Origin: Dictyostelium discoideum
Taxonomy: Eukaryota
Direction: 5' to 3'
DNA length: 64,000 nucleotides
Assembly: GCA_000004695.1 (NCBI GenBank)
Contig: CM000152.2
Location: 4,672,001 to 4,736,000, forward strand
Shown here: positions 3,719 to 39,232 of the stretch, in pieces
How positions within the stretch are numbered: position 1 is the first letter of the stretch
Layout of the letters: every line of letters starts with the position of its first letter
The notes under the pieces: model-generated
What the model was told of the DNA's origin: nothing
Database searches by the model: none
The model's input: only the letters and a program-made list of their open reading frames with translations
Translations under genes and position numbers: made by a program

Positions 3719-4185
3719 TAATAATAATAATAGGTTGGGAAGTTGATATTCAAAAGATTGTTTATAGTGCAATTACAATTTATGGTTATTCATTTGTAAT
3801 TCCATTAATTTTATGGGGTATATTTAAATGGATGAATCTTGGACTTAGATTATTGGATATGTTATGTATCTATGGTTATACATTATTTATTTTCGTTCCA
3901 GCATCAATTCTTTGTGTAATTCCACTTCAATTAGTTCAATGGATTATTGTAGCAATTGCATCAATTGTTTCTGGTTTGTTTTTGGTAACAAATATCTTTA
4001 CACCTTTGAAAGAGGATTTCACAAAAAGAGGTTTAATCATTTGCGCTGTAATTGGTGCATTACATATAGGTTTAGCTTTAGTATTAAAACTTTATTTCTT
4101 TGCAAATAGTACTGAAAACTTTACAATCTCTGATAGTTCTTCAACACCAACTCCAACTCCAACTAATACCACTAAATTATTATAA
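2842..4185 (+). CDS. Yip1-domain family protein (YIPF1/YIPF2-like). Three exons: 2842..3043, 3165..3554, 3734..4185.
   Basis: Exon 2 contains FYEVPYYRFLFNVDTKEV and RENPDLYGPFWVLTSLVFIVAVTSNLNEY, which match human YIPF1 (FEYYQTFFDVDTYQV, RSNPDLYGPFWICATLVF). Exon 3 is multi-TM (IYGYTLFIFVPASILCVIPLQ...). Both introns are phase 1 and both junctions reconstitute an AGT (Ser) codon. Donors are AAgtaatt and AAAAgtatgt; acceptors are caacag and aataatag. Intron 2 contains an (AAT)n array. Confidence 0.75.
3649..3731. repeat. (AAT)n microsatellite in YIPF gene intron 2.
   Basis: Near-perfect trinucleotide array ending at the AATAATAG acceptor. Confidence 0.9.
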
Positions 4186-4318: not shown

Positions 4319-5638
4319 TTATAATAATTTGTTTTTAAAAGATTGTTCTAATTCATTTTGATTTAATGATTCACCAATTAAAACGATTTTATTATGTCTT
4401 TTTTCATCTTTAGACCAAAGTAAACCAGAGGGTAAAACTTCAAAAGTTGCATAAACACCTTGTAATATATATTTTTCATCTTGACCTTTAACAGAGATTA
4501 AACCTTTACATCTAAATATACAATCTTTCTTTTCTTCCCATAATAAATTACCAATCCATCTATTGAATTCTGTTAAATCTATATCACCATCTTCTGTTAT
4601 ACAAACTGTATTTATAAATTTACTATGATTACTAGTATTTGTTAATGAACATTCTTTACAAGATGATGATTCTTCATTATTATTATGTTGATGTTGATGT
4701 TGATTATTACTATTTTGACCTTTTTGAAATTGATCTAAATACTCTTTTAATAATTCGATATTTGGATTATAAGCTTTAACATCTAAAACTTTATCTAATG
4801 GAACAACTGATCTTTCAGTTGTAATAATCTTTGCTATTGGATTAATTGATTTAATCCTTTCTGTAATGGTTTTAATTTCATTATTTAAATTTGATTGATC
4901 CAATAAATCAATCTTATTTAATAAAATAATATCAGCAAATGCAATTTGTCTTTCAACTTCTGTTGAATAATATTTAATATCTGTACCATGAATTTCAATA
5001 TCTTCATCATCCACTTTTTTATTATTATTGTTGTTGGCATTACTATTTAATTTTGATTTTTCAATATGTTTTTCAATATGTTTTGAATCAACTAATGTTA
5101 TAATACTATCGAAATAAATTGGAGACTCTAATTCTTCATCTACCCAAAGTGATGCTGAAATTTGACCAGGATCACCCATACCTGTAGATTCAATTAATAT
5201 ATAATCAAATTTATCTGATCTTTTTAGGAGATCTTCTATTGATTGTAAGAAATCATCCTTTACAGTACAACAAATACAACCATTTGGAAATTCTAACCAT
5301 TCTTGAATCTTTTCACCATTGGAATCCACAATCATTGCTGTTTCAATACCAATCGATTGTCCATACTCATTTTGAATTACTGCTATTTTTTTACCATGAT
5401 TTTCATTTAAAATATAATTTAAAAATGTTGTCTTTTTATTATTATTATTTTTATTATTTATTTATTTTTATTTCAAAATAAATATAATATTAATATAAAT
5501 ATAAATATTATTTCCTTTTTTTTTTTTATTTATTTGTTTTTTTTATGTATTCATAATTACCTTTCCAGAACCTAAAAATCCTGTAATTAATGTTACTGGT
5601 ACTTTTTTATTTATATTTGAATTTGTAACTTCTGTCAT
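4319..5638 (-). CDS. CobW/COG0523-family GTPase (CBWD/ZNG1-like metallochaperone). Two exons: 5561..5638 and 4319..5431.
   Basis: Exon 1 reads MTEVTNSNINKKVPVTLITGFLGSGK (P-loop), followed by a GTAATT donor. Exon 2 follows an AAAAAG acceptor and starts TTFLNYILNENHGKKIAVIQNEYG, then continues through the CobW C-terminal domain (CICCTVKDD, ESTGMGDP). Frame and length are consistent (1113 nt, 371 codons). Confidence 0.8.
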
Positions 5639-5791: not shown

Positions 5792-11134
<5,343 letters not shown>

Positions 11135-34234: not shown

Positions 34235-35167
34235 ATGAAAATAATTTTATTTTTAATTTTAATTATTTTTTTAATTAATGATTGCCAAGGTTTAAAAAAA
34301 GGTACAACCTTTGGATCAGATCCAAATTCAGATAGTGCGAAGTGTAATGATATCAAAGATTTAAATGTTGCTTGGTATTATAATTGGGATAAAAAACCAA
34401 CATGTAATGCTGGAATTCCAGGTGTTGAATTTATTCCAACTATTTGGGGCAGTGGTTCATTACCAATTGGTAATTTACCAAATGGTTCCGAATGGTTAAT
34501 TGGATTCAACGAGCCAAATTACAATAATCAAGCAAATTTAACACCAAAGCAAGCAGCTGATTTATGGCCACAATTAGAAGCCACTGGCAGAAAATTAGTT
34601 GCTCCAGGTGTCGCTGATTGTGGTCAACAGTTAGGTGGTGGCTGTACTTATTCAACATTGGATTGGTATAGCCAGTTCTTGGGAAATTGTAGCAAATGTC
34701 GTATTGATGCCGTATCACTCCATCTCTACTATTGCAATGCCGATGACATGATGAATAAAATCAATAGCCTTTACCAATTAACAAAGAAACCAGTTTGGTT
34801 AACTGAATTTGCTTGTAACAGTCCCGCCAGTAAAGAAAGTGTTGTAACATTTGCTCAAGCTTTATTACCAAGATTAGAAAATTCAACCCAAGTTGGTCGT
34901 TACAGCTGGTTCATTCCATATTGTGGAGGTTGTGGTGCTGGTGATTTGTTATATAGTTCATTATATAATGATCAATCAGGTAATAAAAATTTAACACCAA
35001 TTGGTCAATATTATTCTAATTTCCAAAGTAATAATGGTGGTGGTAATGGTAATGGTAATGGTAATGGTAGCGATAGTGGTAGTGATGAAACTGGTTCAAG
35101 TTCAAATTTAATCAAATCAACTTTAACTTTTACTTTAATTTTAATTTTAATTTTATTATTATTTTAA
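34235..35167 (+). CDS. Secreted, probably GPI-anchored GH128-type glycoside hydrolase (Glyco_hydro_cc catalytic core).
   Basis: Signal peptide MKIILFLILIIFLINDCQG. Then VAWYYNW...FIPTIWG...WLIGFNEPN...LVAPGVAD...WLTEFAC, a fungal Asl1-like catalytic core. It ends in a Gly/Asn/Ser-rich stretch and a hydrophobic tail (LTFTLILILILLLF). Single exon. Confidence 0.7.
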   Translation: MKIILFLILIIFLINDCQGLKKGTTFGSDPNSDSAKCNDIKDLNVAWYYNWDKKPTCNAGIPGVEFIPTIWGSGSLPIGNLPNGSEWLIGFNEPNYNNQANLTPKQAADLWPQLEATGRKLVAPGVADCGQQLGGGCTYSTLDWYSQFLGNCSKCRIDAVSLHLYYCNADDMMNKINSLYQLTKKPVWLTEFACNSPASKESVVTFAQALLPRLENSTQVGRYSWFIPYCGGCGAGDLLYSSLYNDQSGNKNLTPIGQYYSNFQSNNGGGNGNGNGNGSDSGSDETGSSSNLIKSTLTFTLILILILLLF

Positions 35168-35984
35168 AATTAATTGTATAATAAAAAAAAAAAAAAAAAT
35201 TATTTATTTATTTATTCAATCAAGATTTTTTTTTATTTTTATTTTGTTGTTGGTTGTGTGTTTGAATTAAATAAATTTCTTGAATAATTTTATTTTATTT
35301 TTTTTATTTTATTTTATTAATAAAATTAAAAAAAACCAGTGAAATCAAATTGTTTATTTTTTTTTTTTTCATATAGAATGTAACTTGCTAAATGTGTTGG
35401 GATTTTAATTTTTACTGATTATAAGGTATATTTTTTATTTCAAGTGCATTTAATATTACTATTAATTCACAATTATTTTTCAAGAGAATTCTTGCCACTA
35501 TTTAATACCAAATCTAAAAAAAAAAAAAAAATTGTTCCTATCAATATAAAAAAAAAAAAAAAAAATCAAAAATATCTCTTGGCTTTTAAAATTAAATTAT
35601 AATAAAAAAGAAAACATAAAAAAGATAATAAATTAATGGGAAAAATAATTAGATATTTTATATTATAATAATAAAAAAAAAAATTTTAAAATCACAAAGG
35701 TTTGATTGTTTTTGTGTGAATTTTGATAATTTTAAAAAAACAATCAAACTTTGATGTCATGACCGATGCCCATAATTTTTAAATTTCAAATAATTTTTTC
35801 AATTTGGATATTTAATAATAACAAAAAACAATGAAATTTTTTTGTTTTTAGATATTTTTTTAAAAATGATTAAAAAAAAATAATTTAAAAGCTCTTTTTT
35901 TTTTTTTTTTTTTTTTTCATTTTAAAAACTACCTGTAATATTAATTCATACCTTTTTTTTTAACAAAAACTTTTCAAATAAATA

Positions 35985-36341
35985 ATGTGCAAATTTTCAA
36001 GTGGATGTGGAACAAGTGATTCCAAAAATTGCAAGGCATGTGGTACTGCATTATGTAAAGGATGTTCAAGATCATTAAAGACTGGAAGTAAGTAAAACAG
36101 AACTTACTTAATTTCAATTAAATAAACAATAGTTTTTAAATATCAAAATAAAAAAAATAAAAAAAAAAAAATTGAAACCTTTTTTTTTTTTTTTAAACGT
36201 AAAAAAACAAATAATAAATTGTAATCAAAATTTCATGAAACTAACAATTTTAATTTCATCAAATAACAATTTTTCATCTTAGATCCACCACCAAGTGGAA
36301 ATGGTGCTGCTTGCCCAGACTGCAAGAAAAACTTCAGATAA
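35985..36341 (+). CDS. Unannotated two-exon gene (35985..36087, 36283..36341) for a 53-aa cysteine-rich protein.
   Basis: Protein: MCKFSSGCGTSDSKNCKACGTALCKGCSRSLKTG|NPPPSGNGAACPDCKKNFR. There are 8 Cys arranged in four CxxC pairs. Donor is GGAAgtaagt (phase 1) and acceptor is tttttcatcttag. Both exons are clearly less AT-rich than the flanks. Metallothionein-like or zinc-ribbon-like. Absent from the ORF track because each exon is under 60 aa. Confidence 0.5.
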
Positions 36342-36566
36342 ATTCTTTTTTTCAAATTTAATCTGCCATTATACTATTTTTAAATAAAGATAATTTTTTT
36401 CTTTCTTCTTTTTTTTAAACATTAATTTTTTCTTTTATAATTATTATTGTTTTTTTATATTTTTTTTTTTTTTTAAAAAACTTTATCATTGATATTATTA
36501 TTTATTTTAAAGAGTAGGAAAATTTCTTAAACCAAAATAAAATAAAATAAAATAAAATAAAATAAA

Positions 36567-36610
<44 letters not shown>

Positions 36611-37075
36611 AGATTTAATTAAAAATAGATAAAAACTATTTTTTTATTCTTTTATTTGAAATACATTTTTTTTTTTTTTATAAATAAATGTAATTAAAAT
36701 TTTAATATTAAAATACAAATAAAAAATAATGATAAAAAAAAAAAAAAAAATAAACTATTTCGGCCGATATTTTTTTTTTTAATTTAAATGGTTTTTTACC
36801 GAAGCGAAATCGCCTTTTTTTTATTTTTTAATGGCATTTGGATTGTAAGTTATCATTAATTATTTTTATTTTTATTTTTATTTTTATTATTTTTTATTTT
36901 TTATTTTTTTTTTTTTTAGTAAAGTACTGGGGTTAAACATTTTTTTTTTTTTTTTAATTATTTTTCATTTTTTCACAAAAAAAAAAAAATATATAAATAA
37001 CACAACTTCACTCTTTTTTTATTTTTAATTTTTCATTTCATACCAAAAAAAATAGATAACAAAATTAAAAATAAA

Positions 37076-39232
37076 ATGACAATAACAAGTCCAGTAATTA
37101 AAACGCCACCATTAAATTCAGAGATTAGACTTGAATCAAATTTAACAGTTGAATCAGGTGATATTGAAATTAATGAAAAAGATATTGTAAATGCATCGGA
37201 AGTAATAGTAATTTTAGATGCAGGATCGCAATATAGTAAAGTGATTGATAGAAGAGTTAGAGAATTAAATGTTGCATCAGAAATTCATCCATTAAATATA
37301 GATTTATTAGAATTAATTAAGATTAAATCAAAATCAGGATCAACTATTAAAGGTATAATTATCTCTGGTGGTCCAGAGAGTGTCTATGGTGAGAATGCAC
37401 CAAAATTCGATAAATCATTATTCTCTGAGAAATTAAATTTACCAATATTTGGTATTTGTTATGGTATGCAATTAATGAATTATATATTTGGTGGAAAGGT
37501 TGAAAGTAATTCACAACGTGAAGATGGTGTGCACAATATTGAGATTTTAAAAGATGAAAATCAACAACTTGTTTCAAAACTATTTAAAAATTTAAATCAA
37601 ACCGAGCAAGTTTTATTAACACATGGTGATAGTGTTACAAAGATTGCAGATGGATTTAAAATCATTTGTAAATCAGACGATGGTATTGTATCAGGTATTG
37701 AGAATGAAAGATTGGGCTATTATGGCGTGCAATTCCATCCAGAGGTTGATTTAACTACCAACGGTAAGAAAATGTTTTCAAACTTTTTAATTGACATTTG
37801 TGGTTGTAGTGCAAATTATACATTGGATGATCGTGAACAACAAGCAATCACCTATATCAAATCTATAGTTTCAAATAAAAAAGTATTGGTTTTAGTATCG
37901 GGTGGTGTAGATTCAACAGTTTGTGCAGCATTAATTTCAAAAGCAATTGGTCCTGAAAATGTTATTGCATTACATATTGATAATGGTTTCATGAGAAAAG
38001 ATGAGAGTTTAAATGTTGAAAAGGCATTATCAGTATTGGGTCTACATTTGATTGTTGTTGACGCATCTCAAACATTTTATAATTCAACCACCACTATCAA
38101 AGGCCATTTAACCTCATCGTTGAAAGAAACAATATCACCAGAAGAAAGAAGAAAAATCATTGGTGATACTTTTATGAGAGTTGCAGAGAATGAAGTTAAG
38201 AAATTAGGTTTACAACCAGAGGATGTTTATTTAGCCCAGGGTACACTTCGTCCAGATTTAATTGAATCTTCAAGTAAAACAGTTAGTGGTGTTGCCGATG
38301 TTATTAAAACTCATCATAATGATACAGAATTGGTTAGAATCCTTAGAGATTCAGGTAGAGTAGTTGAGCCATTAAAAGATTATCATAAAGATGAAGTTAG
38401 AGAATTAGGTAAATCATTAGGTCTTTCAGATTCTTTGGTATGGCGTCAACCTTTCCCTGGCCCAGGTTTAGCAATTCGTATCATTTGTGCTGATGAACCT
38501 TATCTAGTGAATTATGATTTTACAAATAATGTCGTGCAATATTTAGTAACCGGTGAAGCTTCCTCAGAGTTGGAATCAGAAGTTAAAATTAAAATTGATA
38601 AACAATTAACAGAGATGAAATGTAAACGTCAAGATAAAATTACAATTAAACCAGTTTTATTACCAATTCAAACTGTTGGTGTTCAAGGTGATGGTAGAAC
38701 TTATTCTTATTTATTAGGTCTTTATAGTTCAGAGAATTCAACAATCGACCAAATTCCTTGGTCTTATATTTTCAATTTAGCTAGAACTATACCAAAGATT
38801 TGTCATAATATAAATAGAGTGGTTTTCATTTTCTCTCAAAATGCTACTAAACATACAAATATTAAAGTTTCAAATGAACCAGTTAAACATATCACACCAA
38901 CTCGTTTAACTCCTGATGTTATTAAACAACTTCAACATGCTGATTCAATAGTTTCAGAACAACTCTATAAATATAATTTAATTAAATCACTATCCCAAGT
39001 TCCCGTTGTATCATTACCAATAGATTTCGGTGTTACAGGTAATAGATCAATCGCAATTCGTACTTTTATTACAAATGATTTCATGACTGGTGTTCCTGCG
39101 ATTCCTGGTAAAAATATTAGTTTCGATTGTTTACAAGAAATTACAAATAATATTTTAACTTCTGTAAATGGTATTTCAAAAGTTTTATTTGATTGTACTT
39201 CAAAACCACCTGGTACTACTGAATTCTTATAA
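37076..39232 (+). CDS. guaA: GMP synthase [glutamine-hydrolysing], long eukaryotic type.
   Basis: The 718-aa single exon has a class-I GATase domain (ILDAGSQYSKVIDRRVRELNV, PIFGICYGMQLM with catalytic Cys, GVQFHPEV), an ATP-PPase (VLVLVSGGVDSTVCAAL) and the long C-terminal dimerisation domain typical of human GMPS. Confidence 0.9.
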   Translation: MTITSPVIKTPPLNSEIRLESNLTVESGDIEINEKDIVNASEVIVILDAGSQYSKVIDRRVRELNVASEIHPLNIDLLELIKIKSKSGSTIKGIIISGGPESVYGENAPKFDKSLFSEKLNLPIFGICYGMQLMNYIFGGKVESNSQREDGVHNIEILKDENQQLVSKLFKNLNQTEQVLLTHGDSVTKIADGFKIICKSDDGIVSGIENERLGYYGVQFHPEVDLTTNGKKMFSNFLIDICGCSANYTLDDREQQAITYIKSIVSNKKVLVLVSGGVDSTVCAALISKAIGPENVIALHIDNGFMRKDESLNVEKALSVLGLHLIVVDASQTFYNSTTTIKGHLTSSLKETISPEERRKIIGDTFMRVAENEVKKLGLQPEDVYLAQGTLRPDLIESSSKTVSGVADVIKTHHNDTELVRILRDSGRVVEPLKDYHKDEVRELGKSLGLSDSLVWRQPFPGPGLAIRIICADEPYLVNYDFTNNVVQYLVTGEASSELESEVKIKIDKQLTEMKCKRQDKITIKPVLLPIQTVGVQGDGRTYSYLLGLYSSENSTIDQIPWSYIFNLARTIPKICHNINRVVFIFSQNATKHTNIKVSNEPVKHITPTRLTPDVIKQLQHADSIVSEQLYKYNLIKSLSQVPVVSLPIDFGVTGNRSIAIRTFITNDFMTGVPAIPGKNISFDCLQEITNNILTSVNGISKVLFDCTSKPPGTTEFL

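Follow-up and report, generated by a model that had tools for sequence, protein, structure and literature searches.

DDB_G0281611 of Dictyostelium discoideum encodes a conserved 53-residue eight-cysteine protein, probably a stand-alone two-zinc mini-finger

We have analysed DDB_G0281611, a two-exon gene at positions 35985-36341 of a 64,000-nucleotide stretch of the D. discoideum genome (assembly GCA_000004695.1, contig CM000152.2, positions 4,672,001 to 4,736,000 of the forward strand; the whole stretch is called the window below, and positions are counted from its first letter). Its 53-residue product is the D. discoideum member of a small, sharply bounded and uncharacterised family of microproteins with eight cysteines at fixed positions, for which there is no Pfam entry and for which we found no paper. 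We suggest that the product is probably a stand-alone mini-finger that holds two zinc ions and binds a conserved partner. Both gene and product were known beforehand from GenBank, UniProt and dictyBase, and have been used in RNA sequencing (RNA-seq) analyses; as a gene discovery the locus has no significance, and the remaining interest lies in a tightly conserved, uncurated 53-residue family with eight cysteines. D. discoideum is genetically tractable, and thus offers a cheap route to function for the whole family.

The Cys8 microprotein family

The family is defined here by a length of ~52-54 residues, a start M-C-[KNQ], cysteines at positions 2, 8, 16, 19, 24, 27, 45 and 48, and the residues K17, G34 and G40-N41, all of which are present in the DDB_G0281611 product. 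A HMMER profile retrieved 20 clusters at E <= 1e-3 and 12 at E <= 1e-10 from 1.84 billion representative proteins. When 5.8 billion proteins were searched with profiles, 32-33 family clusters were obtained; up to E = 10 no protein outside the family appeared in them, and no member of these clusters carries a precomputed Pfam domain. Among billions of sequences, proteins of other organisms match the spliced product with E-values from 1e-13 to 1e-27, which is far beyond chance. A search of dictyostelid genomes with the 53-mer had been proposed in the first-pass annotation, a reading of the DNA letters alone. Identity of the D. discoideum protein is 57-81% to the ciliate members and 60% to the Naegleria member. 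Nearly all complete members are 52-54 residues long; the same annotation had named loss of the cysteine pattern and reading frame in orthologues as evidence against the gene, and both were found to be conserved.

The family is found in dictyostelids, in ciliates and in Naegleria; other protists probably have it as well. Members that can be named are those of D. discoideum, D. firmibasis, Synstelium polycarpum (EukProt), Naegleria gruberi and Paramecium bursaria. One further family contig comes from the transcriptome of Oscarella pearsei, and may be a contaminant. An 87-residue member with a C-terminal tail was found on contig ctg59804l (ENA ERZ21831265), which has a GC content of ~50% (judged by eye over a 600-nucleotide stretch). 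At positions 1-2515, this contig carries at least four head-to-tail genes for a 198-residue 2-Cys peroxiredoxin, repeated with a period of 818 bp, whose best match in the PDB is a tryparedoxin peroxidase (4llr); this hints at a kinetoplastid-like organism, to which the family may extend. A scan of viral contigs found no relatives of the family. Three bacterial proteins listed in the 90%-identity family clusters (P0040, P0044, which is annotated as CpaF, and P0047, with 653, 480 and 613 residues) have no similarity to the family and were set aside as an artefact of the listing.

Ciliate genes of the family are mistranslated in public data. In the family-bearing contigs Logan SRR6470656 (family gene at 5097-5258) and ENA ERZ964741 (6001-6162), long open reading frames (ORFs) exist under the ciliate nuclear code only: with TAA and TAG read as Gln and TGA as stop, ORFs extend to up to 1115 residues, while the standard code gives none of 120-150 residues or more. 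The public gene calls on these contigs are therefore wrong. The call for P0004, for instance, has a false N-terminal extension of 32 residues and ends at an in-frame TAG, and we infer that the tails beginning with W after ...NFR in many family matches are TGA stop codons read through by the gene caller. We explain the fact that the family has been missed by the size of the proteins, which fall under ORF cut-offs, together with the mistranslation of ciliate genes by prokaryotic-style gene callers. Literature searches for DDB_G0281611, Q54TQ8, XP_640533, NAEGRDRAFT_34235 and D2VI21 found no paper text, and the general literature on Dictyostelium microproteins and zinc fingers gave nothing specific to DDB_G0281611.

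Cysteine pattern and predicted fold

The ligand pattern of the product is C2-x5-C8-x7-C16-x2-C19-x4-C24-x2-C27-x17-C45-x2-C48. The cysteines had first been described as four CxxC pairs, which needs correction: they form three CxxC pairs (16/19, 24/27 and 45/48) and one Cx5C pair (2/8). The isoelectric point is ~9.2, and the net charge lies between +3 and +8 in all family members tested. Because the N-terminus is hydrophilic and does not resemble a signal peptide, the protein should be cytosolic. In two wider family alignments M1, C2, C8, C16, K17, C19, C24, G34 and C45 are invariant, C27 is invariant or nearly so, and K3, G7, S11, K25, R29, G40 and N41 are nearly invariant. A Paramecium-type subgroup (a P. 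bursaria contig, 4001-4162, as well as P0011, P0012, P0031, P0033 and P0034) carries C45-P-x-G-N-H50 in place of C45-x2-C48, so that Cys48 is lost and His50 is gained; judged from the alignments, this looks like the kind of exchange expected of a metal ligand. In P0012, Tyr replaces Cys27, which may be an error or the sign of a decaying copy.

Eight ligands imply two metal sites, and eight conserved cytosolic thiols most plausibly hold two tetrahedral ones. In the mechanism that we propose, the eight cysteines would bind two Zn2+ ions to give a compact stand-alone mini-finger; in the Paramecium type, seven cysteines and one histidine would hold the two ions. The ligands are probably arranged as a cross-brace, as in FYVE, B-box and RING fingers, with C2/C8 paired with C24/C27 and C16/C19 with C45/C48. 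A conserved basic and aromatic surface would then act as a putative binding module for a conserved partner (protein, nucleic acid or acidic lipid). The gene structure, the conservation of the family, purifying selection, the ligand exchange, an ordered predicted fold and the entry in an RNA-seq table are shown here, while the binding of zinc, its 2:1 stoichiometry, the topology of the cross-brace and a role as adaptor are inferred.

Weak similarities to known domains point mostly in this direction. Across 19 family members, weak Pfam matches were obtained to FYVE in 15, B-box in 14, ANCHR-like B-box in 11, HVO_0758 in 9 and RING-like domains in 7, and most of these domains are two-zinc cross-brace fingers. 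For the DDB_G0281611 product itself, all matches lie below threshold (HVO_0758 at E 0.012, double zinc ribbon at 0.078, FYVE at 0.084 and B-box at 0.57). In sequence searches of the PDB, the core N-C-K-x-C-G-x-x-L-C-K-x-C-S aligns to the FYVE cores in ZFYVE19 (1wfk) and RUFY1 (2yw8). A model predicted by AlphaFold2 from 30 family sequences has a mean predicted local distance difference test score (pLDDT) of 82, and shows a β-hairpin (13-15 / 22-24) with the C16xxC19 knuckle at its turn and no helices; with only 4 sequences the score was 49.7 and the model unusable.

The closest likeness is to the FYVE domain (PF01363; EEA1, Hrs, RUFY1, ZFYVE19), which also has eight cysteines in four pairs. 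The FYVE-type core C-x2-C-x4-C-x2-C is found in the product as C16-x2-C19-x4-C24-x2-C27, and the spacing within the core is identical (C-K-x-C-G-x-x-L-C-K-x-C-S here, H-C-R-x-C-G-x-x-F-C-x-x-C-S in FYVE); the 17-residue gap ahead of the last CxxC is similar as well, and a hairpin is predicted around the second pair. FYVE domains bind phosphoinositides through the motifs WxxD, R(R/K)HHCR and RVC. Unlike them, the DDB_G0281611 product has no Trp and no WxxD, S-K-N-C-K-A in place of RRHHCR, and A-A-C-P-D-C in place of R-V-C-x-x-C; without these motifs there is therefore no phosphatidylinositol-3-phosphate pocket. The two also differ in the first pair, which here is a Cx5C at the extreme N-terminus, in the C-terminal helix, which is absent here, and in that the product stands alone instead of occurring as a domain within a longer chain.

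B-box, ANCHR-like B-box and RING-like domains (PF00643, PF22586 and PF25080) are likewise small two-zinc modules, but the conserved His ligands of the B-box are absent from the product, and all matches lie below threshold, with best E-values of 0.003-0.007 in single members (0.0061 in the family for PF00643). Another comparison is HVO_0758 of Haloferax volcanii (PF23137; PMC10716476), a stand-alone basic zinc-finger protein of ~55 residues, which gives the best single Pfam match of the DDB_G0281611 product (residues 23-53) and is a functional analogue in that the whole protein is one small zinc finger. HVO_0758 has four cysteines, one zinc and an N-terminal α-helix (PMC10716476), whereas the D. 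discoideum protein, with eight cysteines, is predicted to have no helix, belongs to another phylogenetic domain, and scores 15.9 bits against a threshold of 27 bits.

Several results weigh against the two-zinc mini-finger. No significant match came out of the fold searches, and the model does not distinguish cross-brace from sequential ligation. None of the curated Pfam thresholds is reached: the product scores 13.4 bits for FYVE, where the gathering threshold is 27.8 (the best E-value among the 19 members is 0.045), and 10.8 bits for B-box, where it is 24.1. An hhalign comparison with four FYVE domains, whose sequences may be inexact, returned a probability of 6% over 18 columns. Lastly, some archaeal microproteins of the C(P)XCG type are described as binding no zinc in spite of their predicted zinc fingers (PMC11241148). 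Neither membership of a known family nor a known fold could be established for the product, and we tentatively consider, as a possibility short of an even chance, that the family represents undescribed ancient eukaryotic two-zinc microproteins with a fold of their own. An identity of ~60-80% between Amoebozoa, ciliates and Heterolobosea is unusual outside the core machinery of the cell, and would imply a strongly constrained partner; the alternative to ancient constraint is a recent horizontal spread among phagotrophic protists.

Alternative explanations for the conserved cysteines

The strongest competitor to the cross-brace is sequential ligation, in which two single-zinc sites follow each other along the chain in the manner of a double zinc ribbon or a LIM-like arrangement, with C2, C8, C16 and C19 forming the first site and C24, C27, C45 and C48 the second. 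It draws on the weak matches to the double zinc ribbon family PF12773 (E 0.078), zinc-ribbon families and HVO_0758 (E 0.012, residues 23-53), on weak PDB matches of residues 23-50 to LIM domains, and on the 17-residue gap between C27 and C45, which suits a LIM-type second finger. All these matches are sub-threshold, however, the cross-brace families are matched by more members, and the core C-x2-C-G-x2-hydrophobic-C-x2-C has FYVE-type spacing; we regard sequential sites as rather unlikely. This also bears on the mini zinc-ribbon that had been proposed at first: a small zinc-binding protein is still the most reasonable description, but the eight ligands imply two sites, and what weak similarity there is leads to cross-brace fingers.

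The product had also been suggested to be metallothionein-like. It would then be a buffer or chaperone with a variable load of Zn, Cu or Cd, serving storage or detoxification without a fixed fold. Metallothioneins have a very high content of cysteines in CC, CxC and CxxC clusters, and few conserved residues other than Cys. The product is likewise small and Cys-rich, without an aromatic-rich hydrophobic core, and its 53 residues with eight cysteines show no other obvious feature; its expression shifts in infection by Mycobacterium marinum, a setting in which metal poisoning is relevant. Its composition, however, is not that of a metallothionein: Cys makes up 15% of the residues, CC and CxC clusters are absent, and spacing and length are fixed across supergroups. 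M1, K3, G7, K17, R29, G34, G40 and N41 are invariant or near-invariant residues other than Cys, and AlphaFold2 predicts a defined, ordered fold; such traits belong to a structural finger. The suggestion fits poorly, and we consider it improbable.

We see even less probability in an iron or iron-sulfur redox microprotein, that is a rubredoxin-like Fe(Cys)4 protein or a small Fe-S carrier. The protein has the size of a rubredoxin, the top Foldseek matches include rubredoxins (template modelling score ~0.40, E ~3-4), and four of the 19 members match the Pfam family 'Putative Fe-S cluster' (PF04060; best E = 3.7e-4); the rubredoxin fold, in which two CxxCG knuckles bind iron, was not recognised in the product. 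Very improbable, too, is an oxygen- or nitric oxide-sensitive N-degron, in which Cys2, exposed after removal of Met1, would be oxidised and arginylated to make the protein a conditionally unstable regulator. M1-C2 is indeed invariant, nearly all members have K at position 3, and such an M-C-K N-terminus resembles known Cys-degron substrates such as mammalian RGS4/5. Two tetrahedral sites need eight ligands, however, with Cys2 among them, and the exchange of Cys48 for His50 in the Paramecium-type subgroup keeps the number of ligands at eight, Cys2 included, which argues that Cys2 is a metal ligand.

Gene structure, splicing and selection

The window is extremely AT-rich in a Dictyostelium-like manner (21% GC), and the parts of the gene, all on the forward strand, were confirmed at the positions that the first-pass annotation had given them. 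Exon 1 (35985-36087; 103 nucleotides, 36% GC) begins with the start codon ATG at 35985-35987, which has an A at -3; it contains codons 1-34 together with base 1 of codon 35, and its translation is MCKFSSGCGTSDSKNCKACGTALCKGCSRSLKTG. The phase-1 intron (36088-36282; 195 nucleotides, 14% GC) runs from GTAAGT to TTTTTCATCTTAG, with the donor GGAA/GTAAGT and the acceptor TTTTTCATCTTAG, ending in TAG. Exon 2 (36283-36341; 59 nucleotides, 46% GC) supplies the last two bases of codon 35 (AAT, Asn), reads NPPPSGNGAACPDCKKNFR after the completed AAT, which gives PPPSGNGAACPDCKKNFR for codons 36-53, and ends with TAA at 36339-36341. The flanks of 300 nucleotides have only 16% (upstream) and 9% (downstream) GC, and the compositional island described earlier is thus real. 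The context of the ATG, the donor, the AT-rich intron and the positions of the cysteines likewise agree with that description. An AATAAA at 36383-36388, 42 nucleotides past the stop codon on the forward strand, is a candidate polyadenylation signal; the D. firmibasis orthologue has a similar AAATAAAGATAA string about as far past its stop codon.

An exact-sequence look-up found the 53-mer in public records as EAL66567.1 / XP_640533.1 / UniRef100_Q54TQ8 (UniProt Q54TQ8), labelled 'hypothetical protein DDB_G0281611 [Dictyostelium discoideum AX4]'. The exon boundaries and the product had therefore been predicted exactly from the DNA, while the description of the gene as unannotated does not hold. 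Without splicing, exon 1 would be read as a protein of 36 residues (...KTGSK and a stop codon); this reading was rejected, being absent from the protein collection and lacking the conserved fourth ligand pair. A tblastn search of the window with the 53-mer matched its own locus only, and no paralogue was found there. A tRNA scan found no tRNA near the gene, and a scan for bacterial promoters and terminators, which is irrelevant to a eukaryote, showed no enrichment at the locus.

The splice junction is confirmed by comparison with other members of the family, since the intron is conserved in D. firmibasis while the homologues of Naegleria, Paramecium and uncultured ciliates are intronless and colinear. 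The D. firmibasis orthologue, RB653_005220 (CM069765.1, locus coordinates 6001-6324), encodes a protein 85% identical to that of D. discoideum, and has a phase-1 intron of 91 nucleotides at the same position and in the same phase (...RTGG/GTAAGT...TTTAAG/AT). NAEGRDRAFT_34235 of N. gruberi (52 residues) is one uninterrupted ORF of 159 nucleotides; KAM3141725.1 of P. bursaria is also uninterrupted and colinear through the ...TG-x-PP... junction, as is the intronless homologue on the ciliate contig Logan SRR6470656 (5097-5258) through ...TG/xPP.... The start codon at 35985 is fixed by the fact that the family invariably begins with M-C-[KNQ]. RB653_005220 has an extra phase-0 intron of 71 nucleotides after codon 12 (GTSD/S), which D. 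discoideum does not have; the two close relatives differ by the gain or loss of an intron within a coding sequence of 159 nucleotides.

Between D. discoideum and D. firmibasis the coding sequences are 82% identical, with a synonymous divergence (dS) of 0.62, a nonsynonymous divergence (dN) of 0.13 and a dN/dS ratio of 0.21; purifying selection acts on the gene between the two species. While the gene is very short, with each exon below the usual ORF cut-offs, the notion of a chance ORF or a mis-annotated non-coding island is refuted by homologues at E-values down to 1e-27 in several eukaryotic supergroups with frame, length and cysteines conserved, by the dN/dS ratio, by the conserved intron position and by the listing of the gene in an RNA-seq table. 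The orthologues have different neighbours, a Glyco_hydro_cc protein and GMP synthase in D. discoideum, an MFS transporter and Thg1 in D. firmibasis; local synteny is not conserved.

Expression

Supplementary file 1 of bioRxiv 10.1101/590810, a table of differential expression from RNA-seq, includes DDB_G0281611, which means that reads were assigned to the gene. The table compares M. marinum-infected cells of D. discoideum to bystander cells, both obtained by fluorescence-activated cell sorting, and it gives a log fold change of -2.0 at 1 h for infected vs bystander cells, with a false discovery rate of 0.0036 (bioRxiv 10.1101/590810). The gene is not listed in the supplementary tables of the other Dictyostelium transcriptome studies that were checked.

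Neighbouring genes and other features of the locus

Upstream of DDB_G0281611 lies the gene for the Glyco_hydro_cc protein (34235-35167; 310 residues), which looks secreted and carries a GNGN/GSDS repeat at its C-terminus as well as a hydrophobic tail; downstream is that for GMP synthase (37076-39232; 718 residues in one ORF). An inverted repeat, CAAAGGTTTGATTGTTTTT ... AAAAACAATCAAACTTTG, is located at 35695-35713 / 35736-35753, ~230-290 bp upstream of the ATG of DDB_G0281611. Its two arms have exact 14-nucleotide cores, and exact copies of this 14-mer occur in the window only at these two places; the region upstream of the D. firmibasis gene yielded no copy of the repeat, which could serve as a promoter element or be a palindrome that arose by chance.

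Two further features lie between DDB_G0281611 and the GMP synthase gene. At 36534-36606, an (AAAAT)6 microsatellite is directly followed by a run of ~43 A. A G+C-containing stretch, TTTCGGCCGATA ... TTACCGAAGCGAAATCGCC, stands out in the AT-rich spacer at 36760-36816, ~260-320 bp ahead of the start codon for GMP synthase, and may be a regulatory element.
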